64,000 nt of DNA from a virus. Its lineage: Duplodnaviria > Caudoviricetes. Shown piece by piece: positions 2,971-63,368 of the stretch; position 1 is the stretch's first letter; every line of letters starts with the position of its first letter. The position numbers and the translations under genes were made by a program. The DNA is taken from IMG/VR virus record IMGVR_UViG_3300032219_000848, positions 38,178-102,177 of that record; one strand, written 5' to 3'. A model generated the notes under the pieces. The model was given only the letters and a program-made list of their open reading frames with translations, was not told where the DNA came from and made no database searches.

Positions 2971-3006
2971 TTGTTTGTTTTGTTTAAATTAAAAAAATAT
3001 TACGTG

Positions 3007-4254: not shown

Positions 4255-4394
4255 ACGTAGTTTAATTTTTAATTGGTTTTTCGATATAAAAGTATATTAC
4301 ATTAATTTAATAACAAAGAGTAAATCTGCTATGGAGCTGAATATTCTGCATAATATAGCATTAATGAAATTTACTCTAATCTAATTGATTAGAA

Positions 4395-25485: not shown

Positions 25486-25647
25486 ATGGAATTATATAAC
25501 TACGTATTTCACTACAATCATCATGAAGAATTGTGGTGGGCTATTCCAAGAGAATCTTATCTTGATTATTGGAATGGGGATAAATATGAATGCTTATTTG
25601 CATTATCAATGAAAGATTTGATAGAAATAATAAAAGATGGAGAATAA
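25486..25647 (+). CDS. 53-aa hypothetical protein (not in ORF track)
   Basis: MELYNYVFHYNHHEELWWAIPRESYLDYWNG; overlaps polB start. Confidence 0.5.
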   Translation: MELYNYVFHYNHHEELWWAIPRESYLDYWNGDKYECLFALSMKDLIEIIKDGE

Positions 25648-27598
25648 CTTACAGGTTTTATGCTTTGACATCGAGACAATGCAAGAGTTGTTTCTCATTA
25701 ACATACTCGATCCAGAATTACATGAACAACATGAATTCATGGTGAGTAGATGGCACAACAATCTTGATGCAATGGTTAAGTTTATTGATGACCATAAAGA
25801 TTATTACTTTGTAGGCTATAACAATTTACGATTTGATGCTCAAGTTGTAGAATGGATCTTACGTAACTATCAGAATTGGCACGAGAAAGACAATCTAGAG
25901 ATTGCTGCTATGATTGCCCAGAAAGCTGCTGATGTCATCCATGATGCAAACTTTGAGGTATTTCCTGAATACAGAGAACAAGATTTATCATTCAAACAGA
26001 TAGACTTATTCAAGGTTGCACACTACGATAATAAAAATCGTATGGTTAGTCTAAAAAGACTAGAGTTTGAGATGGATCTTGAGAACATCGAAGAGATGCC
26101 TATTCACCATACAAAAGTGGATATGACACAAGAAGAAATTAAAATAACTCGTGACTATTGCAAGAATGACGTGTATGCCACTTATGAATTTTACAAAGTA
26201 CTAAGAGGTAACACTACGCATCCATTATACGAAGATCAAGATCAAATACAATTAAGATTTGATATTCAAGAAGAATTTAATATTCCTTGTCTTAATTATT
26301 CTGATTCTAAAATTGGTGATGAGATGATTAAGAAGTATTATTGCAAAGAAAAGAAAATACAATACGCAAACTTACCTAAGAAAGGTTTCTTTAGAAAAGA
26401 AATTAAGGTGAAGAATTGTATTGCAACATATGTTACATTTAAAACTACACAGCTACAAACATTTCTAAAGAAAATGAAGGGAACAACCCTTGGGCTGCAA
26501 GATGATTTTAAAGAACATATAGATTTCTATGGTAATATATATTCGTTTATGAAAGGTGGTTTACACACTGAGAATAAACCAGAAATATTTGAAGCAAATG
26601 AAGAATACGAAATCATTGATTGGGATGTGTCTAGTTATTATCCTGCTATTATTATCAATAATGGCAGGTATCCTCAACATCTTGGGAAAGAGTTTCTTGA
26701 GGGTTATAAACAAATGTTTAATAAGCGTTTGGAACTTAAGCCACAATCAAAGAAGGATAAAAAGATAGCAGGAATTGTAGGAGCGTTAAAATTAGCTGTA
26801 AACTCTGTATATGGTAAATCTTCTGATATGCAGAACTGGATCTATGATAGACAACTTACTATGTTTACTACTATCACTGGTGAGTTATCTTTAATGATGC
26901 TTATAGAAGCGTATGAACTAGCAGATATACATGTTATATCAGCTAATACAGATGGTGTAACAATTAGAATTAAGAAAACTCATCTTGATAAGATGAATGA
27001 AATCAATCAATGGTGGCAAAACTTAACACAATATGAACTGGAAAGAACAGACTACACAAAGATTATCTTCTCAACGGTTAATGACTATATTGCAATTAAA
27101 CCGAACGGAGAAGTCAAGAAAAAGGGTGATTTTCTCACTGATTTTGAGTTGCATAAGAATAAGTCTGCTAGGGTTGTCCCTTTGGCTCTTGAACAATACT
27201 TCATCAATGGCACTCCTGTCAATGATTTTATTATGGAGCATAGAAACATTTATGACTTTGCAATGCGTCAGAGAGCTAATAAGGATTTTCACTTTGAGGG
27301 CAAATCTGAATCAGGAACTACGATCTACAATAAGCTTATTAGATTTTATGTCTCAAACACAGGAGAAAAACTCTTAAAAGTTAAGAATCTAGACTCTACG
27401 TCTGGAGCTGCACCAATATCACAAGTGGAAGCAGGTGAATGGGTGATGACTGTATGTAATCACCTAACAAAAGATCATCCTCTAGATAATATTAATCATT
27501 CTTATTATATAGAGAGAGCAGAAAGAATTATTAACAAGATTGATTATAATGGTAAGAAAAGACCTGTAATCATCGCAAACCAACTAACGTTATGGTAG
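25637..27598 (+). CDS. polB: DNA polymerase family B
   Basis: Exo I DIET, Exo II GYNNLRFD, Exo III YCKND, motif A DWDVSSYYP, motif B KLAVNSVYGK, motif C NTDG. Confidence 0.92.
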   Translation: MENNLQVLCFDIETMQELFLINILDPELHEQHEFMVSRWHNNLDAMVKFIDDHKDYYFVGYNNLRFDAQVVEWILRNYQNWHEKDNLEIAAMIAQKAADVIHDANFEVFPEYREQDLSFKQIDLFKVAHYDNKNRMVSLKRLEFEMDLENIEEMPIHHTKVDMTQEEIKITRDYCKNDVYATYEFYKVLRGNTTHPLYEDQDQIQLRFDIQEEFNIPCLNYSDSKIGDEMIKKYYCKEKKIQYANLPKKGFFRKEIKVKNCIATYVTFKTTQLQTFLKKMKGTTLGLQDDFKEHIDFYGNIYSFMKGGLHTENKPEIFEANEEYEIIDWDVSSYYPAIIINNGRYPQHLGKEFLEGYKQMFNKRLELKPQSKKDKKIAGIVGALKLAVNSVYGKSSDMQNWIYDRQLTMFTTITGELSLMMLIEAYELADIHVISANTDGVTIRIKKTHLDKMNEINQWWQNLTQYELERTDYTKIIFSTVNDYIAIKPNGEVKKKGDFLTDFELHKNKSARVVPLALEQYFINGTPVNDFIMEHRNIYDFAMRQRANKDFHFEGKSESGTTIYNKLIRFYVSNTGEKLLKVKNLDSTSGAAPISQVEAGEWVMTVCNHLTKDHPLDNINHSYYIERAERIINKIDYNGKKRPVIIANQLTLW

Positions 27599-27939
27599 AA
27601 AAAACAATCACAATGTCAATGTATGAGTATAAAATGCTATCATTAGATGCTGAAATAGCTAGAGAAGCATATAATCAGCTCAAAGAAGAAAAGATGGTTT
27701 TTCTTACTGTAGGAACACGTGCTATGGACATTAGTCAAATGAGTGGTCAAATAGTTGATAAAGACGAATTGCTTAGTAAGATGCAAAAACATTTATCTTT
27801 AATGAAAAAACGAGGTGAAGAACGTGAAACTAGTTATATACAACGTATTTTAGACTTAGAGAAACAATTATCTATAATACAAGCACCTGTAGAAGCTACA
27901 AAAGCTGTCACTAAATGGTGGCATAAACTAATAAAATAA
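27592..27939 (+). CDS. Hypothetical protein
   Basis: Overlaps polB end. Confidence 0.6.
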   Translation: MVEKTITMSMYEYKMLSLDAEIAREAYNQLKEEKMVFLTVGTRAMDISQMSGQIVDKDELLSKMQKHLSLMKKRGEERETSYIQRILDLEKQLSIIQAPVEATKAVTKWWHKLIK

Positions 27940-27940
27940 T

Positions 27941-28357
27941 ATGGCAGGAACAGAGAAACAAAGAGAAGAGATCAACAGGAAGTTGGTCTCTATGCAAATG
28001 GAAATCATAGGGCTATCTTATGAGGACGCAATGAATACACCAGAGTTCTGGAGAGTGTATACATTGACTACAGAACAAATAGAAGCATGGCGTAAAGATG
28101 CTCTTAAACTTATACAGAAAACATTCAAGTGTAATAAGAAAAGAGCTGAAATGACATTAGGTATGTTTGAGCTTAATTTAGGACTGCGTGAATACAATCC
28201 TCCTATAGTTGAAGAAGAATATTTTTGGGATGTTAATAAAAGATTTGATACAACACACATCCGTACAACTATTCCTCCTGAAGCACAATTACTTAAAGAT
28301 CAACAGCCTACATTTTGGCAAAAGATTAAAAAGTTTTTTGTAGGATATTACGAATAA
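27941..28357 (+). CDS. Hypothetical protein
   Basis: Operon packing. Confidence 0.6.
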   Translation: MAGTEKQREEINRKLVSMQMEIIGLSYEDAMNTPEFWRVYTLTTEQIEAWRKDALKLIQKTFKCNKKRAEMTLGMFELNLGLREYNPPIVEEEYFWDVNKRFDTTHIRTTIPPEAQLLKDQQPTFWQKIKKFFVGYYE

Positions 28358-28415
28358 TATATTTAATTTTACATTAAACTAACGCGGGAACAGGTAAATC
28401 TGAACAGATGTATTT

Positions 28416-28613
28416 ATGGGTAACTTTGTAAAATTAACAACACAAAATGAAGATGGATCTTACACAAGAACGTGGATAGATCAAGATTCAATTTTAGAAT
28501 TATCTCAGAATGGAGCAACACAAGCTGGGAATAATGCAGGTACTTGTGTATTTGTAGATGAAACAACTATTGAGTTATGTCAATTTAATGAAACTATTGA
28601 TATGTTATCTTAA
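28416..28613 (+). CDS. Small beta-rich hypothetical protein
   Basis: Own leader motif and downstream hairpin 28637-28663. Confidence 0.55.
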   Translation: MGNFVKLTTQNEDGSYTRTWIDQDSILELSQNGATQAGNNAGTCVFVDETTIELCQFNETIDMLS

Positions 28614-28683
28614 TTAGAAGTTAAAAATTTTATTATAAAGCCTCAAAGAAATTTGGGGCTTTTTACATTTTAAACAACACACA

Positions 28684-29412
28684 ATGAAAACATTAGTGCT
28701 AGGAGATACACATGGTCGTCCGTATTGGAAAGAGATTGTAGCAAAAGAAAACGCTGATAGGGTGATATTTATTGGAGACTATTTTGATTCTTACAATGAT
28801 TATACAGCTGTTGAGCAGATGGATAACTTTAAACAGATTGTAGAATACAAACAATCAGGTAAAGCTGAAGTGATAATGTTAATTGGTAATCATGACTATC
28901 ATTATATGCAAGGTGTATCTGAACGTTATTCAGGATATCAAGCTGGTGCTGCATTTGCTATACAACACTTACTAGAAGATACTAAAGAACATCTACAGAT
29001 GTGTTATAGATTAGGTGATTATTTATTTACTCATGCTGGTGTTAGCCATGATTGGTTACTATTACATTCACGTGAATATAGAAAAGATGAGAACGTTGAT
29101 GTTTCAGAAATTGTAAATGATTTATTTAAATATAAACCTTATTCATTTTGTTTTGCAGGACTTGAACCACATGGTAATAGTAGTTTAGCATCACCAATTT
29201 GGATTCGTCCACAAGCATTACAAGCTACAAACCGTGATACATTGCGTGATAAATATATTCAAGTGGTGGGACATACACAAGTTAACAAAATAGATGTAGA
29301 AGGTAAAGCTACAGGTGGTAGATATCATTATATTGATACATTAGGTACATCAGGAGAATATATGATTATAGAAGATGATAAACTAATATTTCCAACACAT
29401 AAACAAGAATAA
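28684..29412 (+). CDS. Calcineurin-like metallophosphoesterase
   Basis: GDTHG, GDYFD, GNHD, HAG, GHT motifs. Confidence 0.9.
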   Translation: MKTLVLGDTHGRPYWKEIVAKENADRVIFIGDYFDSYNDYTAVEQMDNFKQIVEYKQSGKAEVIMLIGNHDYHYMQGVSERYSGYQAGAAFAIQHLLEDTKEHLQMCYRLGDYLFTHAGVSHDWLLLHSREYRKDENVDVSEIVNDLFKYKPYSFCFAGLEPHGNSSLASPIWIRPQALQATNRDTLRDKYIQVVGHTQVNKIDVEGKATGGRYHYIDTLGTSGEYMIIEDDKLIFPTHKQE

Positions 29413-29528
29413 TATGGAAGATTATGAACACAGTTTAGCTAAGGATTTCGTATATTTATTAGCTGATGAAATGCTAGATGAGCATCTACCAAGAATAGAA
29501 GTTATAGACAAAGATAAAGTATTTAAAG

Positions 29529-30152
29529 ATGAAGATAGAGATAAGTATAGAACAGTTCGAAGACACAATAGCGAAAGGATACACGATGGATATGGTGTTT
29601 CTGTTGATGATGATACACGAACAGTATGATGTAAAACTTATATCTGAAAATAGTCCTAAATTACAAATTTTGTCACAATCAATTCATAGAAAAGGATTGA
29701 TTACAGCAGAATACAAGATAACAGAAACAGGAACCAAGTTGTTAGAATATCTGAAGGCTAAAACCCGACAGAAGTTCGTGAAGCCCAAGATTTCAGCACA
29801 AGAGTTTGATGACTGGTGGGATGCTTATCCTGGAACTGATTCCTTTGAATATCTAGGAATTAAGTTTCAGGGAAGCCGCTCCCTACGTTCTGGTAAAGAA
29901 GACTGTAGAATTAAATTTAATGTAATTCTATCAGAGAAAGAGTATACAGCACAAGAATTAATAGAAGCAATGAAACATGATGTACATTTGAAGAAAGAAG
30001 CATCATACAAAGAGAAAAAGAATAAACTATCGTTTATGCAAAACTCTTTGACATATCTTAATCAAAGAAGTTATGAACCATTCATTGAATTGATTAGAGC
30101 TGGAGCAGTAGTTAAACAATCAGTTAAACCAATAACAGGAACAGATATATGA
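29529..30152 (+). CDS. Replication-initiator/helicase-loader-like protein
   Basis: FDDWWDAYP and TYLNQRSYE motifs; directly upstream of dnaB. Confidence 0.5.
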   Translation: MKIEISIEQFEDTIAKGYTMDMVFLLMMIHEQYDVKLISENSPKLQILSQSIHRKGLITAEYKITETGTKLLEYLKAKTRQKFVKPKISAQEFDDWWDAYPGTDSFEYLGIKFQGSRSLRSGKEDCRIKFNVILSEKEYTAQELIEAMKHDVHLKKEASYKEKKNKLSFMQNSLTYLNQRSYEPFIELIRAGAVVKQSVKPITGTDI

Positions 30153-31219
30153 GTTTTCAAGATTTAAAATTAGCAGTTGAAGAAGGACTTGCAGGTAAGA
30201 ATGGTGGTATTCCTATGGGGTTTGATAGATTGAATAGATACATTGGTATTCGTAAGTCTATGTACACTCTTGTAGGTGGTCTAACAGGTTCTGGTAAAAC
30301 ATCTTTTATAGATGATGCGTATGTACTAAATCCATTTGATTGGTCTATTAGCCCAGAAGGTAAAGCATCTGGGATTAATGTAAAGATCATCTATAGATCA
30401 ATGGAGCGTAGTAGAACCTACAAGTATGCCAAATGGATTGGTAGAAAAATCTTTCTAGATCATGGAATTATTATTCCTGTAGGAAAGATGTTAGGTTGGA
30501 CTGATAAGATGAGTCATGATGAACATGATCTTTTCTTACAGTATGAAGAGTATGGTGAATTGATGAAAGAGAAAATTACTATCATTGATGGACCAGAGAA
30601 TCCCGTAGGTATAGCAAAAGATCTCAGGGAGTATGCTATGGAAAATGGAGAAGTTATTCAAGTGGATAAATGGAATAGGAAATATATTCCTAATGATTCT
30701 AATGAAATAACTCTTGTAATTGTTGATCATATTGGTTTGTTAAAACTTACTAAAGATCACCCTACAAAGAAGAATTCTATAGACAAGATGTCTGATGAGC
30801 TGCGTTACGCCAGGGACTTTTATGGTTATAGTCCTGTAGTTGTATCTCAGTTCAATCGTGACATTGCTAATCCTATGAGAATTAAGAATGGTGATGTAGA
30901 ACCTCAACTAGAGGATTTTGCAGACAGTTCAGCTACACAAAATGATGCTGATGTTGTATTAGCACTATTTGATCCTATGCGTTATAAAGTGGAGGACCCT
31001 AGTGGTTATGCACTTGATAAACTAAAGGATGAATATGGTGCAAAGTATTATCGTTCTGTAAGACTAATTAAGAATAGTTTTGGATCAGATGACGTTCGTA
31101 TAGGTCTTGCGTTTTTAGGCGATGTAGGAATGTTTAAAGAACTAAAACGTAGAAAGGATATGACAGACTCAGATTATGAGGCAGTCGTAAACAAAACTTA
31201 CTTTCTTGAAAAGTATTAA
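30149..31219 (+). CDS. dnaB: Replicative DnaB-like helicase
   Basis: GLTGSGKT, IVDHIGL, VSQFNR, NDADVVLAL, KNSFG. Confidence 0.88.
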   Translation: MSFQDLKLAVEEGLAGKNGGIPMGFDRLNRYIGIRKSMYTLVGGLTGSGKTSFIDDAYVLNPFDWSISPEGKASGINVKIIYRSMERSRTYKYAKWIGRKIFLDHGIIIPVGKMLGWTDKMSHDEHDLFLQYEEYGELMKEKITIIDGPENPVGIAKDLREYAMENGEVIQVDKWNRKYIPNDSNEITLVIVDHIGLLKLTKDHPTKKNSIDKMSDELRYARDFYGYSPVVVSQFNRDIANPMRIKNGDVEPQLEDFADSSATQNDADVVLALFDPMRYKVEDPSGYALDKLKDEYGAKYYRSVRLIKNSFGSDDVRIGLAFLGDVGMFKELKRRKDMTDSDYEAVVNKTYFLEKY

Positions 31220-31275
31220 GTAATATATTTGGTAATGTCGTATCTTTTCTTTATTATTGTAAAAATAAAAATAAT

Positions 31276-31965
31276 ATGAAAAAGATTGACATTACTGAAT
31301 ATTTTGGAAAGAAGTTTGGAAGATTAACAATTCTTGAAGAAGGGACATCTGTAAAGTATGAAAGAACTACTATGAGAAAAGTAGTATGTTTATGTGATTG
31401 TGGAAATCGTAAAGAGATTGACTTCAACTCTATAAAGAGAGGTAAATCAACATCTTGTGGGTGTTTTAATAAAGAGCATTCAAAAAAACTACACACTACA
31501 CATGGTATGAGTACTTTACCTAATGGGATTAAACATCCTGATTATTGTATTTGGGTAAAAATAAAATCTAGATGTTTGAATATTAATGATACATCATATA
31601 AAAACTATGGTGGAAGAGGTATTAAAATATGTGACAAATGGAGAGATTCTTTTGAGGATTTTATTTCTGACATGGGATGGAGACCAAATCAAAACTATTC
31701 AATTGAACGAATAGATTACAATAAGGATTATTGTCCTGAAAATTGTAAATGGATACATAAGTCTGAACAAAGTAAAAATAGTCGAAGAGTTAATTTAATA
31801 ATATATAATGGATCTAAATATTGTTTAACCGATTTATGTAAAATGTTAAAACTTTCATATAATACTATGCGACATAGAGTACATGATTTAAAAATACCAT
31901 TTGAAGAAGCTATTAAATATCCAAAACATTATAAATTTACAAAAGAAAAACGTGAAAGATATTAG
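31276..31965 (+). CDS. Free-standing HNH-type homing endonuclease
   Basis: CLCDCG..STSCGC..THG, YKNYGGRGIKIC, SIERIDYNKDYCPENCKW; AT-richer than flanks; overlaps next gene. Confidence 0.8.
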   Translation: MKKIDITEYFGKKFGRLTILEEGTSVKYERTTMRKVVCLCDCGNRKEIDFNSIKRGKSTSCGCFNKEHSKKLHTTHGMSTLPNGIKHPDYCIWVKIKSRCLNINDTSYKNYGGRGIKICDKWRDSFEDFISDMGWRPNQNYSIERIDYNKDYCPENCKWIHKSEQSKNSRRVNLIIYNGSKYCLTDLCKMLKLSYNTMRHRVHDLKIPFEEAIKYPKHYKFTKEKRERY

Positions 31966-34754: not shown

Positions 34755-35759
34755 ATGATAAAAGGAGAAAAAAGAGTCAGTTTATCAAAAGAAGCTATAC
34801 TTAGTAAAATAGGTCCATATGACATATTTAGGTATTATATGCCTAATACAAAATGGAGCTTAAATGTTACAACACATTCACCATTCAGAGAAGATAAGAG
34901 ACCATCATTTGTTATAGGTAACAGAGATAGTACAATTCTTTTTATAGATTTTGCAGATTCTGCAAAGAAAGGTGATTGTTTTAAGTTTGTACAGCTATTG
35001 TATAATATTCCTTTGTCAGAAGCACTAAGACTCATCGACAGAGATTTTGGTCTTGGAATTATATCTAAGAATAATGTAGGAGAATATCAGAGAATTATTT
35101 CTGAATACAAAGCTCCTGAGATTGTTGTAGAGAAAAAGTATTCTAAGATACAAGTAGTAACCAGAGCTTTTACAAATGCAGAATTACAATATTGGAATGA
35201 TTATCATCAAAGTGAAGATGATCTAAAAGCTAATAATGTTTATGCTGTTAAGAAAGTATATCTTAATAGAGAACAAGTAATTATACAGGAGAAAGAAATG
35301 GTGTTTGGCTATTTATACGGAGATAGATGGAAAATCTATAGACCACATGTAGATAAACAGTTTAAATGGATGCCTAACAATGTGCCCATAACTGCTATGG
35401 ATGGAATAGAAGACATTAAAGACTGTAAGGTGGCATTCATTAACAAGTCAAAGAAAGACTATATGGTGATGAAAAAGATATTTTCATGTAGTTGTGCAGT
35501 TCAGAATGAGAGTGTAGGATGTTTCTCTGATGAGAACATTGAATACTTGAAAGCAAACTCTAGATTCCAAGTGTTATCATTTGATGCAGATGGACCAGGA
35601 GTTAAGAATTCTAAACTAATTACAAAGAAATTTGGATTTGACTATTGTAATGTACCCAGAAAGTATTTAACTGAAGGGATTAAGGATTGGTCTGACCTTG
35701 TTAAAACACATGGATATGAACCTGTAGAAGAGTATTTAAAAAAGAGAAAATTAATATAA
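34755..35759 (+). CDS. dnaG: DnaG-type primase
   Basis: SPFREDKRPSF, GDCFKFV, TOPRIM FDAD and KDWSD; start ATG 34755. Confidence 0.82.
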   Translation: MIKGEKRVSLSKEAILSKIGPYDIFRYYMPNTKWSLNVTTHSPFREDKRPSFVIGNRDSTILFIDFADSAKKGDCFKFVQLLYNIPLSEALRLIDRDFGLGIISKNNVGEYQRIISEYKAPEIVVEKKYSKIQVVTRAFTNAELQYWNDYHQSEDDLKANNVYAVKKVYLNREQVIIQEKEMVFGYLYGDRWKIYRPHVDKQFKWMPNNVPITAMDGIEDIKDCKVAFINKSKKDYMVMKKIFSCSCAVQNESVGCFSDENIEYLKANSRFQVLSFDADGPGVKNSKLITKKFGFDYCNVPRKYLTEGIKDWSDLVKTHGYEPVEEYLKKRKLI

Positions 35760-54150: not shown

Positions 54151-55194
54151 TTATGCAGGCCCAATTGTAGTAACTGTTCCTGAAGATCCTCTATATTTCA
54201 AAGCCCCAGCTTCTACAAAAAGAATACCTCCTCCTGCAAGACTAGCAATAGGTGCTGTTCTATTTTGCATTAATAACCTATCTGCGTTGATAAATTGGAA
54301 GTAATCAATAGAATCAGTAGAACCGCCAGTTGCAGATAAAGCAACTAATGTTGAGTTTGGCTTATCATAAACACTATTAAATATTGAATAGAATCCACTT
54401 AAAGAAACTCTAGCAACGTTTTGAAATGATGGGATTAAAATTTGTGAACTTGCTATAGTAACAATTGTTCCTGCTGATGTGGTAAGTGCATTTGCTGTAG
54501 CAGTTGTAGCAATTATTATACTATCTGCAAAACTTATATTACCAGCTAACGCTACAGGGGAAATAGCTACTGCATTTCTTACAAGCACTCTTGCTCCAGC
54601 ATTGTTAACTGTAATAAAGCTTGGATTACCTCCAAAAATAGCTATCACTCCAGCAGTACTCGTAATGTTAATAGCGGATATATCACAAAAACGAATAAGT
54701 GTGTAATCACCAGAATTACTTTTTGTTAAAGTGCCAGAAATGTCACAATTAAGTATGTTTACATTTCCTGTACCAGCTGGTGCAGTAATACTTAGGTTTG
54801 TCATCTTTAATCCTGAAATAGTACATCCAATGCTTGTGCTTACAGTTCCAGAAATTACTGTATTTCCACCAAGAATTGCGGGTGTAGTCAATACTGTATA
54901 TTGATATGTTATTGATGGACTTTCAATATAGGTTCCAGGGTGAATAATTATTGTTCTTCTATCACCAGTGACTAGAGTTAGTGCCTTAGTAATAGATGCA
55001 AATGGTTTAAGTAACTCTCCATTACCAGTGGTATCACTTCCATCTATTTGACTAACATGAATCTCATAATCATAACCAGTAAAGTTAAGACCAGAAGTAG
55101 ATATAAGACCATTGATAAGATTGTCAAGGTTTAACCAATTGTTAAATCCTTTGACATTTTTTTCCCAAAAACCTGTTTTAATGAAATTAGCCAT
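54151..55194 (-). CDS. Pectin-lyase-like beta-helix protein (DUF1565-type start); possible spike or fiber
   Basis: IHVSQIDGSDTTGNG..KPFASITKAL..IIIHPGTY; I/T/S/G-rich repetitive beta strands. Confidence 0.65.
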   Translation of the reverse strand: MANFIKTGFWEKNVKGFNNWLNLDNLINGLISTSGLNFTGYDYEIHVSQIDGSDTTGNGELLKPFASITKALTLVTGDRRTIIIHPGTYIESPSITYQYTVLTTPAILGGNTVISGTVSTSIGCTISGLKMTNLSITAPAGTGNVNILNCDISGTLTKSNSGDYTLIRFCDISAINITSTAGVIAIFGGNPSFITVNNAGARVLVRNAVAISPVALAGNISFADSIIIATTATANALTTSAGTIVTIASSQILIPSFQNVARVSLSGFYSIFNSVYDKPNSTLVALSATGGSTDSIDYFQFINADRLLMQNRTAPIASLAGGGILFVEAGALKYRGSSGTVTTIGPA

Positions 55195-55204
55195 TTTATT
55201 TATT

Positions 55205-55618
55205 TTAACTTAGCGTTAATAAGAATTTGGTTTTTGCCGCTTCTCCAGATAATGCATCAGCTAAGTTACATACATCATGATATGAGTTTCTCTCTCCATA
55301 CATCTTTAACGATGATGCAAATGACATTATATCTGATGCACACTTTTCAGCTGTACAATCTGTAAGAGGTTCTATTTTATAAGCTCCAGGTCTTTTACCT
55401 GTATAGCCCATAAGCTTCTCAATCAATCCATCTTTAAAATCATGTACATAATCATACAATGCTCCTGTGGCTTGATGTTGTGCATAACTTTTTGTTTGCC
55501 AGTGAGTCAGATGTAATTGCTCATGAAAGTAAGTAAGCTTAGCAGCGATACTCTCTAATGAGAGCTCGCTACTAGTTGCATTACTTAACATTTCTTGTGG
55601 GAATAGTGACTTAGCCAT
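55205..55618 (-). CDS. Ferritin/Dps-like protein (DUF5856-like)
   Basis: HLTHWQTKSYAQHQA..Y...DGLIE..MG. Confidence 0.75.
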   Translation of the reverse strand: MAKSLFPQEMLSNATSSELSLESIAAKLTYFHEQLHLTHWQTKSYAQHQATGALYDYVHDFKDGLIEKLMGYTGKRPGAYKIEPLTDCTAEKCASDIMSFASSLKMYGERNSYHDVCNLADALSGEAAKTKFLLTLS

Positions 55619-56151
55619 TATACAACAGTTGTAGTAGTAGTGGTTGTAAGTCTTGTAGTACTAGTTGTTGTAGTTGTTGGACCAGCTGTAGTACTAGTTG
55701 TAGTGGTAGTAGGAGCAGCTGTAGTACTAGTTGTTGTAGTTGTTGGAGGAACTGCTGCAACTGTAAATGTTGGAGCTGAGTTAGGACAAATAGCCTGACT
55801 TTGAGCACCAGTCATTACAAGTGTAAGATTTGTTCCACCTGTTGTAGAGAACACTCCTAATAAAGGATAAGTTGCATTCAACTTAGTAACTAAATCTGCT
55901 ACTGATGAAGAGTTTTGTCCTGAAGTTAATATTTGAACTAATGATCCTCCACAGAACAACCTAACTTGGAAGTTAGTAATAGTAGTAGCCACTGTAGTAG
56001 TGAGTGTAGCATCATTGCAACACTGATACCCTTGAACTTGTTGCCAGCTACCCACTTTAGGTTTCTGCTTTCTCAGAATAAGGCTGCCTGCTACAACCCT
56101 TCCTGAACCATCGTATCTTACATACGCCTTTAAATTTCTTTGATTAGCCAT
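55618..56151 (-). CDS. Putative virion protein with mucin-like Thr-rich C-terminal tail
   Basis: Ends PPTTTTTSTTAAPTTTTTSTTAGPTTTTTSTTRLTTTTTTTVV. Confidence 0.75.
   Translation of the reverse strand: MANQRNLKAYVRYDGSGRVVAGSLILRKQKPKVGSWQQVQGYQCCNDATLTTTVATTITNFQVRLFCGGSLVQILTSGQNSSSVADLVTKLNATYPLLGVFSTTGGTNLTLVMTGAQSQAICPNSAPTFTVAAVPPTTTTTSTTAAPTTTTTSTTAGPTTTTTSTTRLTTTTTTTVV
55622..55750 (-). repeat. Imperfect 33-bp (11-aa PTTTTTSTTxx) tandem repeat, 3 copies plus a Thr tract
   Basis: Repeated TGTAGTACTAGTTGT units on the plus strand. Confidence 0.8.
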
Positions 56152-56169
56152 GTTATTTAATAATTAAGA

Positions 56170-57189
56170 TTAATATTGTAAATTATATTTTTGTTTTAAT
56201 TCTATAAGTTTAGATACGTAGAAGTGACTACCAAGTGTCTTACTGCGCTCATCATTATATACTATCATCATGTGAGGATCTGTAAAAGGATTTATTCCGT
56301 TGTGGTATTTACCTTTGTAGAATGTAGGAATATCACCCATTGTATCTCCTATGATTCCAGCATTGTGAAATATACCTAAACGTTCAACTTTTTCTATAGA
56401 ATCAGAAGCCCAACAGAATTCCATTTCAGGAATCACTTTTGTTACACCTTCAACTCTCCATAGATTCCATAGAACAGCCCACATATCTGCACACCAGCTT
56501 TGAAACCCTCTATCTTCACTTTCAAAAAACTCTTCATTCACTTGCATTAAATGTTTACGAATAGATATGCAATCTTCCATTACATGTTTCCAGAATTCTG
56601 CATCAATGTTTTTTAATAAATATTGAGCTCCTCCTGAATGTAAGTTATAATGTTCTGCAATTTCTCTATTGATATTACAAATAGCCGTAGTTTCTTGTAG
56701 AATATCACGTTGTTTGTATTCTTCTAGTTTGTGTAGAAGAACATCTTTTTCTTTACTATCAAAGTAACTAGCATTGATGTAACTATTAGTATCTGATAGA
56801 TAATGTACATCATCATTAATATAATCATCAATATTAAACTTCTCTGTAAACACAACATCACAATCACAATATAACAATGCTTTTTCTTTCATCTCAGGAT
56901 GATCCTGGAAATAACGCATTAATGTATATGGACGTAATACAGGAATATAAATACCTAATAATTCACTAACAGTGTTTTCATCGTCTCTATAGAAAGCAAA
57001 CTCTGCTTCTGGATATAGATCAATAATTTTTTGCCATTCATTATTAGGCTCTCTAAAGTTTGGAATGAACACTACTACAATTGCTTTATCTGAGTGTCCT
57101 AGTTTTTTTAAACTTTCTAGCCATAAATGCACTTGCCATGTAAAATATATATCATCAGGCTGGGCGCAAATAAATTTTAATTCCTTCAT
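56170..57189 (-). CDS. GT-A glycosyltransferase resembling SERGT1/HPAT protein O-glycosyltransferases
   Basis: YFTWQ, YIPVLRP, DxD (YCDCD), SGGAQY, SWCADMWA, HNAG. Confidence 0.65.
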   Translation of the reverse strand: MKELKFICAQPDDIYFTWQVHLWLESLKKLGHSDKAIVVVFIPNFREPNNEWQKIIDLYPEAEFAFYRDDENTVSELLGIYIPVLRPYTLMRYFQDHPEMKEKALLYCDCDVVFTEKFNIDDYINDDVHYLSDTNSYINASYFDSKEKDVLLHKLEEYKQRDILQETTAICNINREIAEHYNLHSGGAQYLLKNIDAEFWKHVMEDCISIRKHLMQVNEEFFESEDRGFQSWCADMWAVLWNLWRVEGVTKVIPEMEFCWASDSIEKVERLGIFHNAGIIGDTMGDIPTFYKGKYHNGINPFTDPHMMIVYNDERSKTLGSHFYVSKLIELKQKYNLQY

Positions 57190-57211
57190 GTAGTTGTTGG
57201 TTTAATTTATA

Positions 57212-57382
57212 TTATACTGTAGTCGTTGTAGTAGTAGTGGGTGCAACAGTTGTAGTAGTCGTAGTGGTAAGACCTCTGTTATACATAACACGTGTTAGAT
57301 TTTGTAATTGCTTAGAAATCTGCCAAAGTAATTGTGCTTTAGTACTAGAAGGTTGTCCTATTTGTCTTGCAGGTATTGCCAT
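57212..57382 (-). CDS. 56-aa anchor plus poly-Thr peptide (not in ORF track)
   Basis: MAIPARQIGQPSSTKAQLLWQISKQLQNLTRVMYNRGLTTTTTTTVAPTTTTTTTV; N-terminus homologous to 57876-58445. Confidence 0.75.
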   Translation of the reverse strand: MAIPARQIGQPSSTKAQLLWQISKQLQNLTRVMYNRGLTTTTTTTVAPTTTTTTTV

Positions 57383-57771: not shown

Positions 57772-57873
57772 TTAAACTGATGTGATGGTTTGCCAAGTTG
57801 TTGAGAATACGCATAATTTACCTAATGTTGTATCAAAGACCACTAGTCCTGTTGCTGGTGATGATATAGCCAT
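57772..57873 (-). pseudogene. 33-codon orphan fiber-type module (remnant)
   Basis: MAISSPATGLVVFDTTLGKLCVFSTTWQTITSV; starts 2 nt after the stop of 57876-58445. Confidence 0.45.
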
Positions 57874-57875
57874 TG

Positions 57876-58445
57876 TTACCCTATATTAAATATGTTAAAG
57901 TTAACAGATGGTGATAAAGGTCTAGTTGGATTAGTTCCTGCAGCAGTTGCCAAAAGTTTCATCCCAGTAGCAGCAGACCACCAATAAAACTTAATATACT
58001 GTCCAGCAGTTAATGTAATTGTATCTGCTATACGTGCAAGTGTTTGATCATTTTGTACTCCAGTAGTAGTGAATGTAAATGCTGAATTAGGTACAATTGC
58101 ATCATTAATTGTATACCAAACAGTTACATTATAACTTGATGCTCCTCCAGTAAATGCAAGTTGAAGACTAAGATCTATATAATAAGTTCCTGTGTTTACA
58201 ATAGTCACTGTATTACTAGTCAATGTAAAACCATTAGCAGCCTGTGTTGATGCAATTAATACTTGATTAGCTGTAGTTGCACCACCATTATTCTGAGTAG
58301 TTACATCAAAAAATGTTGCAGAGTAAAGAGATACAGGAGCTGGTATATTACTTGTTACACCAGTTAGCGATTCTAATTGCTTAGAGATTTGCCACAACAG
58401 ATTTTCTTCTGTTCCCCAACCTATTTGTCTAGATGGTATAGCCAT
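57876..58445 (-). CDS. Anchor plus beta-sandwich (BclA/C1q-like) domain protein, likely virion decoration
   Basis: MAIPSRQIGWG..LLWQISKQL N-terminus; TIVNTGTYYIDLSLQL...LTAGQYIKFYW. Confidence 0.6.
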   Translation of the reverse strand: MAIPSRQIGWGTEENLLWQISKQLESLTGVTSNIPAPVSLYSATFFDVTTQNNGGATTANQVLIASTQAANGFTLTSNTVTIVNTGTYYIDLSLQLAFTGGASSYNVTVWYTINDAIVPNSAFTFTTTGVQNDQTLARIADTITLTAGQYIKFYWWSAATGMKLLATAAGTNPTRPLSPSVNFNIFNIG

Positions 58446-58614
58446 TTTATTATTATTTTATAACAAATATATTATTGTTTTAACAAACTTTGTTAAAATT
58501 ATTGAAATAAAGGTTAATGAGTTTCATTAATAACTCTAACTAAGTTAGTTATAATCATCTCAATTGTATTTTAAATTTCCTTGCACAGTTATATTTATTT
58601 TTATATATTTATAT

Positions 58615-59052
58615 ATGCAAAAAGAAATTTATCCAAACTATATACTTACCTCAGATGGTAAAATATATTCTAAGAAATCTGAAAAATTCTTAAAGCCCTT
58701 CTATAATACTAAGAAATATCAATGTGTTGATTTACCTAATGTTAAATCTGCTAGAATACATAGATTAGTAGCTGAAGCTTTTATAGAAAATCCAAACAAT
58801 TTACCTCAAGTTAACCATATTGATGGTAATAAATCTAATAATGATGTTTCTAATTTAGAATGGTGCGATAATAGAACTAATGCTATACATTATCATAAAT
58901 CTAAATCTCCTGGAGTTAGTATTACTAAATACGGTAATTACCTTACCAAAATTTATTTAAATAAAAAACAAGTATATTTAGGTACATTTAAGACATTGGA
59001 AGAAGCTAACTTAGCTTATTCTACCGCCCTTGACCAACGTATTTTTTCTTAG
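58615..59052 (+). CDS. HNH homing endonuclease (HNH_3 plus AP2-like)
   Basis: IHRLVAEAFIENP..QVNHIDGNKSNN..NLEW; YLGTFKTLEEA..AY; antisense to its neighbours. Confidence 0.85.
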   Translation: MQKEIYPNYILTSDGKIYSKKSEKFLKPFYNTKKYQCVDLPNVKSARIHRLVAEAFIENPNNLPQVNHIDGNKSNNDVSNLEWCDNRTNAIHYHKSKSPGVSITKYGNYLTKIYLNKKQVYLGTFKTLEEANLAYSTALDQRIFS

Positions 59053-59154: not shown

Positions 59155-59583
59155 TTATATAGATGATAATTGGAAATGCATTGCATCTAACCTTTGCCAA
59201 TCTCCACCCCAGTCAAATCCTGCATCTTTAAAACATTTGACAAACCCTGAAGATAACTTAGGAATTTGATTTAATTGGTTCTCGAAAGCGTTTACATCCA
59301 CAGCAATACCCCAGGAGTGTAATGACATAGATGTTAAACCACGCTTCTTACGAATGTTGAAGCATCCATCCCATGTTTTTAATTCACTTACATGTCCTGT
59401 AGCTATAAGACTTTCAAATGCTTGTGTTAAAGGACCTACAATATCTTTATTACAATATAACTTTTTAGGAATAACACCAATCTCTAGATGTGCAGGAATA
59501 TCCCACATCACCATATGCTTACTTTGTGTAGCAACAAGATCTGGTTGTCCGTATTTCTTTAATGCTTGTGCACTAGTTATCAT
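59155..59583 (-). CDS. Endolysin, M15 (L-Ala-D-Glu) peptidase
   Basis: R..SLHSWGIAVD, WGGDW..DAMHFQ. Confidence 0.88.
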   Translation of the reverse strand: MITSAQALKKYGQPDLVATQSKHMVMWDIPAHLEIGVIPKKLYCNKDIVGPLTQAFESLIATGHVSELKTWDGCFNIRKKRGLTSMSLHSWGIAVDVNAFENQLNQIPKLSSGFVKCFKDAGFDWGGDWQRLDAMHFQLSSI

Positions 59584-61340: not shown

Positions 61341-63368
61341 ATGAAACAAGCAAAAGTATTATATCTAGTTCCTCATTTGTCTACAGGAGGTATGCCAGCA
61401 TTTGTTCTCAAGAGCATAGAAGTGCTACAAAAATATATCAATGTCTGTGTAGTTGAGTATAATTGTTACAGTTTAGACTATGTGGTGCAAAGAAATAAGA
61501 TTAAAGAATTAGTAGGAGATAACTTTCACACTTTGTTTGAAGACAAGACTAAGATATTTAATATCATTAAAGAGTTTGCTCCTGATATCATTCATATACA
61601 TGAACCATCAGAAAGATTTGATGCTCATATAATGAGTGAACTCTATAGACCTAATAGACTTTACAAGATTGTTGAAACTTGTCATGATGTGTCATTTGAT
61701 CCTAAGACTAAGTTATATCACCCTGATGGGTATGCTTTCTGCACACCTTACCACTTGCATACATTTAAAGACTTACCATCTTATAAGCAAGTCATTGAGT
61801 ACCCTATTGACCCAAAGGAATCAAAGAAACTTCCTGGCATAAATAATGTGGTCAATGTGGGACTATGGACACCAGGCAAGAACCAAGCAGAAGGAATAGA
61901 GATAGCACGTAAGAACCCTAACTTTAACTTTAACTTTATAGGCAACCAAGCAAGTAACTTTAAAGATTATTGGGAGCCTTTAATGACTGACCTACCAAAA
62001 AATGTCAAGGTGTGGGGAGAAAGAGATGATGTGGATGAGTTCTTAAAGCATGCTAACATATTTATGTTCAATAGCACATGGGAATGTAATCCATTAGTAC
62101 TTAGAGAAGCAATTAGCTATGGCTTACCAATTGTCGCTCACGATCTACCCCAATATGGGTCCATGTTTGAAAGGTATATTCAACCTATAGACACAGACTT
62201 AAATACTATAAAATGTAATTACATTGTACCTACAGATAACACCTCAGATATTTTTGCTGAGAAGTATAATGAGTTTTATAATAAAGTATTAATGATGCCA
62301 CATGAGGAACAAGATGTACATATATCTAGATACTTTGTTGAGCAACCATTCCTTGAGATTAACTGTTCTGTTAACTCTGAGTTTAAAGTGCAATACTTTG
62401 ATGATAATAATGTTTGTCATTATGAGAACACTATAGGTTCTAATTCGTGGGTTAGACTAAATAGAGAATACTATACTGAATGGAAAATTAAAATATTTGA
62501 GCTTGACAAATTAGTTTACGAGTATAAGTTATCACTAGAAGGTGAAAAAGTATTTATAAACATTGCTAGTAAGTCATTAGGGGACACAATTGCTTGGGCT
62601 CCATATGCTATAGCTTTTCAAAAGAAACATAACTGCAAGGTGATAATGTCAACTTTTTGGAATCATATACTTGACATGCCTGAAATAGAACTAGTTGAAC
62701 CAGGATCAGTGGTGAATGATATATTTGCTCAATATAATATTGGATGGTTCTACGATAGAAATAAAGAACCTGCATTACCTAATACCATAAAGCTCCAAGA
62801 GGCGGCAACTAATATCTTAGGTCTTGAGTTTCAAGAACTTAAGCCAAAGTTAAAGTATAAAGTTGGTAACAATAAATATAGTAAATATGTTACGATAGCT
62901 ACTAACTCAACAGCAGGATGTAAGTTTTGGACAAGAGAGGGATGGCAAGAAGTTATAAATTACTTGCATAACAAAGGATTTGTAGTGGTGAATATATCAA
63001 AGGAGGATAATCCTTTTGATAATTGCCAAAAGATAGATGATATTGATATAGAAAATACAATGAGCGTTATCTATCATAGTCAGTTTATGATAGGACTAAG
63101 TAGTGGCTTGAGCTGGTTAGCTTGGGCTGTAGGCAAACCTGTGGTGATGATTAGTAACTTTACTACACGTGAACATGAGTTCAAAAGTATACGTGTAGTT
63201 AATGAGAATGTATGCCACGGATGTTGGAACGACCCTATGTTCAAATTTGATAAGGGGGATTTCGATTGGTGTCCAAAACTAAAAGATACTCCTCGACAAT
63301 TTGAATGTCAAAGGAGTATCTTAGCTGAGGATGTAATTAAAGTTCTACCTCTTCCTCTTTTAGAATAG
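61341..63368 (+). CDS. GT4-like domain fused to an autotransporter O-heptosyltransferase-like (TibC/Aah, GT9-fold) domain
   Basis: PHLSTGGMP and E.NPLVLREA (GT4); SKSLGDTIAW, IGLSSGLSWLAW, CHGCWND..WCP..FEC. Confidence 0.78.
   Translation: MKQAKVLYLVPHLSTGGMPAFVLKSIEVLQKYINVCVVEYNCYSLDYVVQRNKIKELVGDNFHTLFEDKTKIFNIIKEFAPDIIHIHEPSERFDAHIMSELYRPNRLYKIVETCHDVSFDPKTKLYHPDGYAFCTPYHLHTFKDLPSYKQVIEYPIDPKESKKLPGINNVVNVGLWTPGKNQAEGIEIARKNPNFNFNFIGNQASNFKDYWEPLMTDLPKNVKVWGERDDVDEFLKHANIFMFNSTWECNPLVLREAISYGLPIVAHDLPQYGSMFERYIQPIDTDLNTIKCNYIVPTDNTSDIFAEKYNEFYNKVLMMPHEEQDVHISRYFVEQPFLEINCSVNSEFKVQYFDDNNVCHYENTIGSNSWVRLNREYYTEWKIKIFELDKLVYEYKLSLEGEKVFINIASKSLGDTIAWAPYAIAFQKKHNCKVIMSTFWNHILDMPEIELVEPGSVVNDIFAQYNIGWFYDRNKEPALPNTIKLQEAATNILGLEFQELKPKLKYKVGNNKYSKYVTIATNSTAGCKFWTREGWQEVINYLHNKGFVVVNISKEDNPFDNCQKIDDIDIENTMSVIYHSQFMIGLSSGLSWLAWAVGKPVVMISNFTTREHEFKSIRVVNENVCHGCWNDPMFKFDKGDFDWCPKLKDTPRQFECQRSILAEDVIKVLPLPLLE

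Follow-up and report, generated by a model that had tools for sequence, protein, structure and literature searches.

The window, the whole stretch of 64,000 nucleotides analysed here, belongs to an uncultured phage of Bacteroidota whose genome is about 88% complete. On its minus strand we observe three co-oriented ORFs encoding proteins of 56, 339 and 177 aa, separated by gaps of 22 nt and 18 nt, which agrees with the trio described in the initial annotation of this DNA. The trio and its relevant neighbours are:

54151..55194 (-), 347-aa tail-like protein, matching phrog_4577 'tail protein' (E 2.3e-6)
55618..56151 (-), 177-aa protein (p177) with an N-module, an alpha/beta domain and a disordered Thr tail; proposed acceptor substrate
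56170..57189 (-), 339-aa soluble protein, predicted GT-A glycosyltransferase; PHROG 4417, without a Pfam family
57212..57382 (-), 56-aa mini-protein (p56) with a 38-aa N-terminal module (MAIPxRQIG...LLWQISKQL) followed by T7-VAP-T7-V; proposed acceptor substrate
57876..58445 (-), 189-aa protein with the p56 N-terminal module and a folded C-terminal payload, without a Thr tail
61341..63368 (+), 675-aa two-domain GT-B glycosyltransferase (GT4-like and GT9-like); phrog_2170

By its sequence match, the 347-aa tail-like neighbour would place the trio among virion genes. The 675-aa protein matches the Pfam families Glycos_transf_1 (2.6e-12) and Glyco_transf_9 (1.3e-8). Of the 37 related loci with enough flank, 26 have a homologue of it on the opposite strand, 4-9 kb upstream. 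The 675-aa protein is possibly a glycan-extending companion of the trio, but an uncertain member of the system.

The two outer proteins of the trio end in threonine tails. Translation of 57212-57382 gives a peptide ending in T7-VAP-T7-V, as first reported, and p177 (55618-56151) has a tail of three PTTTTTSTT-type units and then RL-T7-VV. The Thr codons had been described as mixed, and counting them gives four different codons in the p56 tail (ACT 8, ACA 3, ACG 2, ACC 1) and three in the p177 tail (ACT 14, ACA 12, ACC 2), so the tracts are not simple nucleotide repeats. In the six frames of the 64-kb window, only these two ORFs contain S/T runs of ≥5 residues with ≥4 Thr. Thr-rich linkers are also found on a 1999-aa protein encoded outside the window, which matches virion-structural PHROGs, and on a 147-aa protein elsewhere in the phage genome; no Thr tail was found on the phage's own major head protein. 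The length of the Thr runs has a sharp peak at seven, with xAP spacers, and this peak is a new observation.

The middle protein had been read as a DxD enzyme, and its structural model agrees with this. The model shows one Rossmann-like alpha/beta/alpha domain built around a central mixed sheet, which is a GT-A fold, and D109-C-D111 follows the fourth strand, where strand 104-107 ends and ahead of strand 112-114. Both Asp residues of the DxD are invariant among 69 family sequences of 30-47% identity. H275 is likewise invariant in the 69-sequence consensus, where it precedes a conserved N-A-G, and is a candidate C-terminal metal ligand; together with K292, these residues form the candidate catalytic set. 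The protein begins MKELKFICAQPDD and is hydrophilic from residue 1. No membrane segment, signal peptide or hydrophobic helix was found in it, with the modelled chain globular from residue 4 onwards. The modelled fold thus supports a DxD GT-A glycosyltransferase.

The closest solved folds belong to the GT8 clan (glycogenin, LgtC, GlyE of the pneumococcal serine-rich-repeat protein pathway, UGGT and LARGE1), and because of this resemblance we infer a retaining mechanism. Compared with these enzymes, the window protein has an identity of 6-12% and about 80 extra residues present as helical insertions. Pfam Glyco_transf_8 (PF01501) matched neither the window protein nor its 68 relatives at E≤1, a sequence search of solved structures with the single protein and with the 69-sequence profile gave no meaningful match, and we do not assign the enzyme to GT8 by sequence. 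The fold also bears on what is transferred. That the group moved to the Thr tails is something else than a plain sugar (e.g. sugar-1-phosphate), or that the enzyme acts on Ser or another spacer residue, seems hardly likely, because the top structural matches, 3-4 Z units above the others, are all Leloir sugar transferases of the GT8 clan, of which a DxD and His metal site is typical.

The initial annotation had also proposed kinship with the plant enzymes HPAT (GT95) and SERGT1 (GT96). The motifs YFTWQ, YIPVLRP, DCD, GG and WCADMW are all present, at positions conserved family-wide in the 69-sequence consensus, and presumably parallel motifs of the plant enzymes. The HPAT family PF23452 is the only Pfam family that matches more than one relative (2 of 69, sub-threshold, best E 0.012), and HPAT is found on 10-58% of the members in 22 of the 30 nearest named ESM-Atlas clusters. 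However, PF23452 at its 23.9-bit cut-off matches neither the window protein nor the six-frame translation of its genome, and the closest folds are those of the GT8 clan. A Pfam scan of ten cultured-phage homologues and ten short members of the family found neither HPAT nor another GT family. In 13 homologue-bearing Bacteroidota genomes, PF23452 gave no above-threshold match and two sub-threshold matches at unrelated places, and it gave no match in 401 further sampled Bacteroidota genomes. Longer fused relatives are phage or bacterial multi-GT fusions, with no plant proteins among them, and no solved GT95 or GT96 structure is among the matches of two fold searches. Altogether, the sequence comparisons faintly suggest a kinship with the plant enzymes. 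GT95 has been predicted to be GT-A-like, and for GT96, which was without a crystal structure in 2021, a possibly novel fold was predicted (PMC8476585). Like the proposed system, the plant enzymes glycosylate consecutive hydroxy-amino acids, in their case on extended, Pro-rich proteins of the cell wall; they differ in being membrane-anchored Golgi/ER enzymes that act on Hyp or Ser, whereas the window enzyme is soluble and paired with Thr.

Homologues of the enzyme consistently neighbour Thr-tract ORFs, also in distant phages. Of the outcomes that would have spoken against the initial annotation, neither of the two open to computation, an enzyme without a GT-A fold and a lack of co-occurrence with Thr-rich ORFs, was observed. 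We found a co-oriented poly-Thr ORF ≤700 nt from the enzyme in 79 of 80 related IMG/VR loci, and a co-oriented T6+ ORF ≤700 nt upstream of it in 65 of 74 loci. In all 11 cultured-phage lineages examined, which are unrelated and have both Gram-positive and Gram-negative hosts, the capsid, tail-tube or decoration-like genes adjoining the enzyme carry Thr-rich C-tails. Cultured phages with a family enzyme include Lactococcus 1706 and bIL285, Enterococcus phiFL1A, nattely and VPE25, Lacticaseibacillus iLp84 and PLE3, and Chryseobacterium MA9V-3. The tails of the Gram-positive phages sit on capsid and tail-tube proteins without a common leader, and family members also occur in small temperate phages, inside head-tail modules directly after capsid or tail-tube genes. 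In two ortholog comparisons, the Thr tail was absent from phages without the enzyme. Numerous phages without relation to one another have the family beside Thr-tailed head and tail proteins, so the enzyme most likely sugar-coats phage proteins. A search of the full-text literature, covering few subscription journals, found no prior description of this enzyme family or of poly-Thr as a phage glycosylation tag.

The same adjacency could arise from a shared late or structural module if the Thr tracts were flexible spacers only and the enzyme glycosylated a host envelope polymer such as LPS, teichoic acid or capsule. The purpose would then be superinfection exclusion or receptor masking. Viral poly-Thr linkers are without a nearby family enzyme in 62 of 67 cases, the 675-aa GT-B with its GT9 (LPS heptosyltransferase-type) domain is 4 kb away, and phage glycosyltransferases acting on surface glycans of the host are well known and are mentioned in PMC12619734. 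We nevertheless consider this reading unlikely, since tail and enzyme were gained together in the two independent ortholog comparisons, immediate co-oriented adjacency recurs in at least 11 unrelated cultured lineages although Gram-positive and Gram-negative envelopes differ, and the enzyme has neither a membrane segment nor a signal peptide.

Many phage glycosyltransferases act on DNA. Glycosylation of hypermodified bases to evade restriction would be such an activity, and the family carriers VPE25 and VFW of Enterococcus do have glucosylated DNA, but the authors ascribed it to a separate T4 beta-glucosyltransferase-like enzyme (PMC4999554). No thymidylate-synthase or hydroxymethylase homologue was found in the window's genome, at its completeness of about 88%, and the place of the family in head-tail modules of small temperate phages also speaks against a DNA substrate. 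This role is very improbable and was set aside.

The Thr tails are carried by conserved N-terminal modules. The first 38 residues of p56 recur in conserved form in 61 of 83 related loci, where the ORFs that carry them measure 47-289 aa; the 56-aa ORF is therefore a real gene. p177 begins with a conserved module of 46 aa (…KAYVRYDGSGRVVAGSLILRK.KPKVG.W…CCN), which is followed by the alpha/beta domain (48-143) and the disordered Thr tail (144-177). In relatives, both modules also precede other, folded payloads, of 130-1292 aa, and trade places with the N-terminus of the tail-like protein. The N-terminal 33 residues of the 347-aa tail-like protein themselves head other payloads in relatives, and in one related locus (L063) the C-domain of the 189-aa protein is fused to that N-terminus. 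Since the 189-aa protein bears the p56 module with a folded payload and not a Thr tail, the module is a shared adaptor. The use of two conserved N-terminal modules as carriers of Thr tails and other payloads is a new observation.

A conserved N-terminus, a hypervariable C-terminus and several tandem paralogues beside a modifying enzyme are also features of RiPP-like precursors. On that reading, a leader would guide the glycosyltransferase to its peptide, and the products would be free glycopeptides and not virion parts. Such products could be antifreeze- or mucin-like, signalling or inhibitory peptides. Cellular homologues do lie in clusters with C39-peptidase ABC exporters, HlyD, LanB, LanC and double-Gly-leader precursors. 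However, modules that head large folded payloads and exchange with a tail-like N-terminus behave as adaptors and not as leaders, the phage locus has no protease or exporter, and the capsid and tail-tube proteins of Gram-positive phages share no leader; free glycopeptides are therefore an improbable outcome.

Our preferred reading, which is probably correct, is that the 339-aa protein works in the cytoplasm as a metal-dependent GT-A enzyme and glycosylates Thr hydroxyls in phage poly-Thr tracts. A sugar would be moved from a nucleotide-sugar donor to the Thr hydroxyls, with the tails of the flanking 56-aa and 177-aa proteins as acceptors here and the Thr-rich linkers of the 1999-aa and 147-aa proteins as further probable acceptors. 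In other phages the family adjoins capsid, tail-tube and decoration-like proteins that are unrelated and have nothing but a Thr tail in common. The enzyme would therefore recognise the tract as such, in units of about seven Thr between xAP spacers. The N-terminal modules of p56 and p177 would serve as adaptors, probably docking the tails onto the particle, where they would form a glycosylated mucin-like brush that might serve in shielding, adhesion or stability. We infer Thr O-glycosylation, its cytoplasmic timing and virion docking, and likewise the virion anchoring and mucin-like coat suggested in the initial annotation. A broader idea, which we offer tentatively, is that T7 with xAP is a portable leader-free tag read by one GT-A family. 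Phages of Bacteroidota and Firmicutes would graft this tag as a mucin-like brush onto capsid, tail-tube and fibre proteins and adaptor-headed mini-proteins, bacteria would use the family on poly-Thr cores of lanthipeptide-type RiPP clusters, and the number seven might reflect a molecular ruler, either in the acceptor groove or in a glycosylated polyproline-II-like rod.

To our knowledge, sugar-coating of phage particles has been shown for mycobacteriophages only, where antibody recognition was altered. Virion O-glycosylation in the mycobacteriophages Che8, Corndog and Myrna was reportedly described by Freeman et al. 2023 (Cell Host Microbe 31:1216; cited through PMC11256854, PMC12619734 and PMC10877033). 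The likeness lies in phage-encoded glycosyltransferases, proposed or shown acceptors at capsid and tail-tube C-termini, and a glycan shield as the likely outcome. Across the relatives of the window enzyme, too, phage-encoded glycosyltransferases are linked by their genes to virion proteins whose C-termini hold the proposed acceptor regions. In the genome of this phage, the partners are small adaptor-headed proteins and the 1999-aa protein. The proposed system differs in having a single GT-A family (PHROG 4417), a dedicated length-quantised poly-Thr tag as the predicted acceptor, hosts among Bacteroidota and Firmicutes, and, in this phage, tags on small adaptor-headed proteins and not on the major head protein.

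If true, this would extend virion glycosylation to phages of Bacteroidota, lactic acid bacteria, enterococci, staphylococci and clostridia, including dairy phages and phages of therapy research (VPE25-type), and would have it run on a simple transplantable seven-Thr tag. Such a coat bears on phage immunogenicity, clearance, mucus adherence and particle stability, and the pair of enzyme and tag could serve glycoengineering in the bacterial cytoplasm. Since several well-studied cultured phages carry the enzyme and Thr-tail pair, the idea is directly testable.

Cellular homologues of the phage enzyme adjoin double-Gly-leader precursors, as in RiPP bacteriocin and lanthipeptide clusters, from which the phage locus differs in having no exporter, protease, LanB or LanC. 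Known glycocin enzymes belong to the GT2 family. In a lanthipeptide-like cluster of Sphingobacterium detergens, a homologue of the enzyme is accompanied by a precursor with a T13 tract. This pairing is a new observation and may point to a class of RiPPs, glycosylated or rich in Thr, that has so far gone unnoticed.

The initial annotation had described a closely spaced, co-oriented gene trio, and we find its ORFs on the minus strand with intergenic gaps of 22 and 18 nt:

57212-57382, minus strand: 56-aa ORF, product ending in T7-VAP-T7-V
56170-57189, minus strand: 339-aa ORF, the enzyme
55618-56151, minus strand: 177-aa ORF, C-terminus of three PT5ST2-type units, then RL-T7-VV

The Thr codons were also said to be mixed, and ACT, ACA, ACC, and ACG are indeed all used in the tails, which are therefore not slippage repeats. 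Across all six frames of the window, comparable Thr runs occur in these two flanking ORFs only. Outside the window, on the remainder of the viral contig (G000:C1), two further proteins of the same genome carry Thr runs:

contig 25507-31506, minus strand: 1999-aa protein, Thr runs as linkers between repeated Cys-containing segments
contig 35065-35508: 147-aa protein with Thr runs

The 1999-aa protein matches PHROG families named "virion structural protein" (E 6e-92). At residues ~1480-1625 it has repeated C-x-LPSGSAV segments with Thr/Ser runs between them, followed by a Cys-rich C-terminal region. Two giant minus-strand ORFs also lie outside the window, of 3906 aa (G000:C1:6684-18404) and 1671 aa (G000:C1:1669-6684), neither of which matches a PHROG.

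The enzyme is assigned to PHROG 4417, a family of unknown function (E 9e-54), and matches no Pfam family even at E 1. The family comprises 1977 clusters at 90% identity among word-sharing candidates and 756 representatives at 50% identity in a full scan. Using an alignment of 69 members (30-47% identity), we found that Y81, D109, D111, Y137, F258, H275, K292, and Y324 are invariant and that the near-invariant positions include G186, G187, Q189, Q230, A277, and G278; every enzyme motif listed in the initial annotation falls inside a conserved block. The AlphaFold2 model built from this alignment is very confident (pLDDT 97.4, pTM 0.93). The Foldseek search that had been proposed for the enzyme returned only GT-A glycosyltransferases as top PDB matches (XXYLT1, UGGT, WbbM, alpha-1,3-GalT, and glycogenin; E ~1e-5), and the fold is accordingly GT-A with a DxD motif, the retaining GT8 clan being its nearest neighbour. 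Proteins are the acceptors of several of these GT-A enzymes. Sequence identity to all matched structures is 6-12% and no GT8 Pfam model matches the enzyme, so the GT8 clan describes what the enzyme works like and not a family of which it is a member. The enzyme is soluble, since its N-terminus is not hydrophobic and it is globular from residue 4. Other family members are fused to GT2, GT6, and GT32-like domains as well as to methyltransferase and radical-SAM domains, a pattern to be expected where an initial, acceptor-committing transferase precedes the steps that build the glycan.

The proposed kinship with HPAT (GT95) and SERGT1 (GT96) fared less evenly. Against membership, PF23452 (HPAT) matches neither the window protein, nor its genome, nor 20 other family members searched singly, nor 13 genomes with homologues and 401 further Bacteroidota genomes. 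In favour of a distant relation, no Pfam family except HPAT matches two or more of the 69 members (HPAT matches 2, best E 0.012), and HPAT marks 22 of the 30 nearest named ESM Atlas clusters (feature scores 0.96-0.97, 10-58% of cluster members). A 2021 deep-learning survey predicted a GT-A-like fold for GT95 and a possibly novel one for GT96, with no crystal structure of either as of that year (PMC8476585). We regard the link as a reasonable lead, not a result.

The enzyme gene is consistently found beside Thr-tract ORFs, as had been anticipated, both in related loci and in eleven cultured-phage lineages. A co-oriented ORF with at least 6 consecutive Thr lies within 700 nt of the enzyme in 79 of 80 IMG/VR loci (64-94% identity), which belong to one lineage and weigh as roughly one observation of a conserved arrangement. 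Such an ORF is present upstream in 65 of 74 related loci, downstream in 66 of 79, and on both sides in 55. The number of Thr-run ORFs per available flank falls from 1.23 within the first kb to 0.10 in the next and is at most 0.05 from 2 kb outward. The cultured phages carry more distant enzyme homologues (21-33% identity).

Thr-rich proteins in the eleven cultured-phage lineages.
Enterococcus phiFL1A: Thr-rich C-terminus on tail-tube gp50, immediately upstream, and on 332-aa gp45 beside the scaffold gene
Enterococcus nattely: small unannotated ORF just upstream and tail-tube protein
Staphylococcus F1: annotated assembly protease, plus two small proteins encoded upstream
Lactobacillus Semele: two proteins encoded upstream
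Lacticaseibacillus iLp84: capsid protein, 125-aa upstream protein, and tail-tube protein
Clostridium phiCTP1: gp18, encoded upstream, with the C-terminus ...T5-NAPI-T6-V
Lactococcus bIL285: tail-tube protein
Lactococcus 1706: tail-tube protein and protease-capsid fusion
Lactobacillus SAC12B: Ig-domain protein with (VKPTT/VAPTT)n end
Lactobacillus LP65: TTTETQTQTQ repeats on two upstream proteins
Chryseobacterium MA9V-3: internal Thr tracts in the 429-aa protein encoded upstream and in another whose gene lies two genes beyond it

In bIL285, the C-terminus of the tail-tube protein is ...SVYDKNSK-T9-RHD; four orthologues at 45-56% identity, from Ruminococcus, Streptococcus, Geobacillus, and Exiguobacterium phages, end just after a conserved W-x-x-V-Y, and these four genera are not represented in the 77 phage records that carry the enzyme. 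In iLp84 the capsid protein has the C-terminus ...KVLV-P-T7-SK, whereas the orthologue of Oenococcus phage phiS11 (54% identity) finishes with ...QVLA. The next head-tail genes come directly after the capsid gene in phiS11; iLp84 carries Thr-rich gp8 and the enzyme as an insertion at this point. An enzyme acting on the host envelope is hard to square with Thr tail and enzyme being gained together, and with hosts of both Gram types. The location of the gene inside head-tail modules of small temperate phages also makes DNA an unlikely target; moreover, the genome has no hydroxymethylase-type gene, and DNA glucosylation in phages VPE25 and VFW has been ascribed to an enzyme other than a member of this family (PMC4999554).

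As a reverse test, 67 viral loci with an in-frame T8+ ORF were drawn by a T9-coding DNA pattern. The enzyme family is present in 5 of the 67, each time as the next gene downstream of the Thr ORF, a frequency of ~7% compared with 0.15% of phage records overall (77/50,697); the majority of the viral poly-Thr tracts in these loci are not adjacent to the family. Altogether, genomic support for the putative enzyme/Thr-tail system is strong.

The Thr runs themselves have a sharply preferred length. Among 134 distinct Thr-run ORFs of related loci (L003-L082), counting runs of at least 4 Thr, 169 of 316 runs are exactly seven long, the runner-up being eight (47). Because this preference is so sharp, it suggests a ruler, whether this lies in the acceptor site of the enzyme or in the product after modification. 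The runs are separated by VAP (26), AAP (10), ASP (8), EAP, and AEP, and AAP is the commonest C-terminal cap. A unit of xKP/xAP followed by T7 recurs across phages of different bacterial phyla, including Gram-positive iLp84, nattely, and Semele.

The source contig is viral, 102,177 bp long with 32% G+C and a completeness of ~88% (CheckV); the window is its last 64 kb. The host is most likely a member of Bacteroidota, because the enzyme's nearest relatives among genome assemblies lie on contigs binned with Sediminibacterium, Saprospiraceae, and Cytophagales. The genes around the trio form a late or structural block:

1417-9001: major head protein, portal, and large terminase
54151-55194, minus strand: 347-aa tail-like protein
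59155-59583: endolysin-like protein

Both Thr-tailed proteins begin with modules that are found on other proteins. Residues 1-38 of the 56-aa peptide also begin the adjoining 189-aa protein (57876-58445, minus strand), and 61 of 83 related loci have this module at the start of ORFs 47-289 aa long. The 46-residue N-terminal module of the 177-aa protein has 13 invariant positions (M1, L7, A9, V11, R12, D14, G15, R18, S23, L24, P31, G34, and C44) and occurs in 82 of the 83 loci on three kinds of protein: mini-proteins of 60-80 aa consisting of module and Thr tail, often present as tandem copies; proteins of ~140 aa that contain a small alpha/beta domain and may or may not have a Thr tail; and proteins of up to 1292 aa. 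In one related locus (L063:6095-7027), residues 1-33 of the 347-aa tail-like protein are joined to the domain that forms the C-terminus of the 189-aa protein. Within this phage group, N-terminal adaptors recombine freely with payloads, and the modules behave like docking adaptors whose payloads can be exchanged, as is the case in phage fibre systems. It is mainly this likeness that indirectly points to the Thr tails ending up on the particle. An AF2 model of the 177-aa protein has a three-stranded N-terminal module, a confident domain at 48-143, for which a fold search gave no significant match, and a disordered tail. Just downstream of the 189-aa gene, a 33-codon ORF (57772-57873, minus strand) has 64% identity to the last 33 residues of a 169-aa ORF in related locus L003 and looks like a leftover payload fragment.

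Distant homologues of the enzyme (27-39% identity) are encoded on 0.34-4.8 Mb bacterial contigs of Chitinophaga, Sphingobacterium, Mucilaginibacter, and Longitalea isolates or MAGs, and on shorter Bacteroidota MAG contigs. In Chitinophaga niastensis (L214:2397-8821) and Mucilaginibacter oryzae (L220:3462-8690) the family domain is the N-terminal half of a 566-587-aa protein, fused to a second domain. In the former, this protein has a C39-peptidase ABC exporter with HlyD on one side and a LanC-like protein on the other; in the latter, it is followed by a LanC-like protein. The M. oryzae locus also has an 85-aa Cys-rich precursor candidate with an ...NVLGG leader and without a Thr run. In Sphingobacterium detergens (NZ_RAPY01000002.1, L215:247-12843), a class-I-lanthipeptide-like cluster encodes a split LanB, LanC, a C39-ABC exporter, HlyD, a GT2, a zinc dehydrogenase-like protein, a 534-aa protein whose N-terminal half belongs to the enzyme family, and an 81-aa precursor that has a double-Gly leader and, close to the C-terminus, a T13 tract. 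These clusters lend apparently independent support to the family acting on peptides or proteins. Pairing with poly-Thr is seen once, in S. detergens, where T13 could equally be a dehydratase substrate; 9 of 12 distant cellular loci have no Thr run within 6 kb. An enzyme making a RiPP-like free glycopeptide would agree with the cellular clusters and with the resemblance of the phage modules to leaders, but we consider it very improbable given the large folded payloads on the same modules and the Thr tails on capsid and tail-tube proteins of Gram-positive phages.

Glycosylation of Thr tails on phage proteins could involve a second transferase:

61341-63368, plus strand: 675-aa GT-B protein with two domains, GT4-like (Glycos_transf_1) and GT9-like (Glyco_transf_9)

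Of 37 related loci whose flanks are long enough, 26 have a homologue of this protein 4-9 kb upstream of the GT-A enzyme, in every case on the other strand. The GT-B protein may extend the glycan, or may be unrelated. No account of the PHROG 4417 family or of poly-Thr tags in phage glycosylation turned up in the literature searched; mycobacteriophage virion glycosylation is the known precedent.

Two further genes lie close to the trio. An HNH_3/NUMOD4/AP2 homing-endonuclease-like gene (58564-59052, plus strand) is a single plus-strand insertion amid minus-strand late genes. The start of a gene for a 137-aa DUF5856 protein (55205-55618, minus strand; PHROG 858, "starvation-inducible transcriptional regulator") shares one base with the stop of the 177-aa gene; the protein is present in 78 of 83 related loci, with ~94% identity in the closest, and its conservation is far above that of its neighbours.
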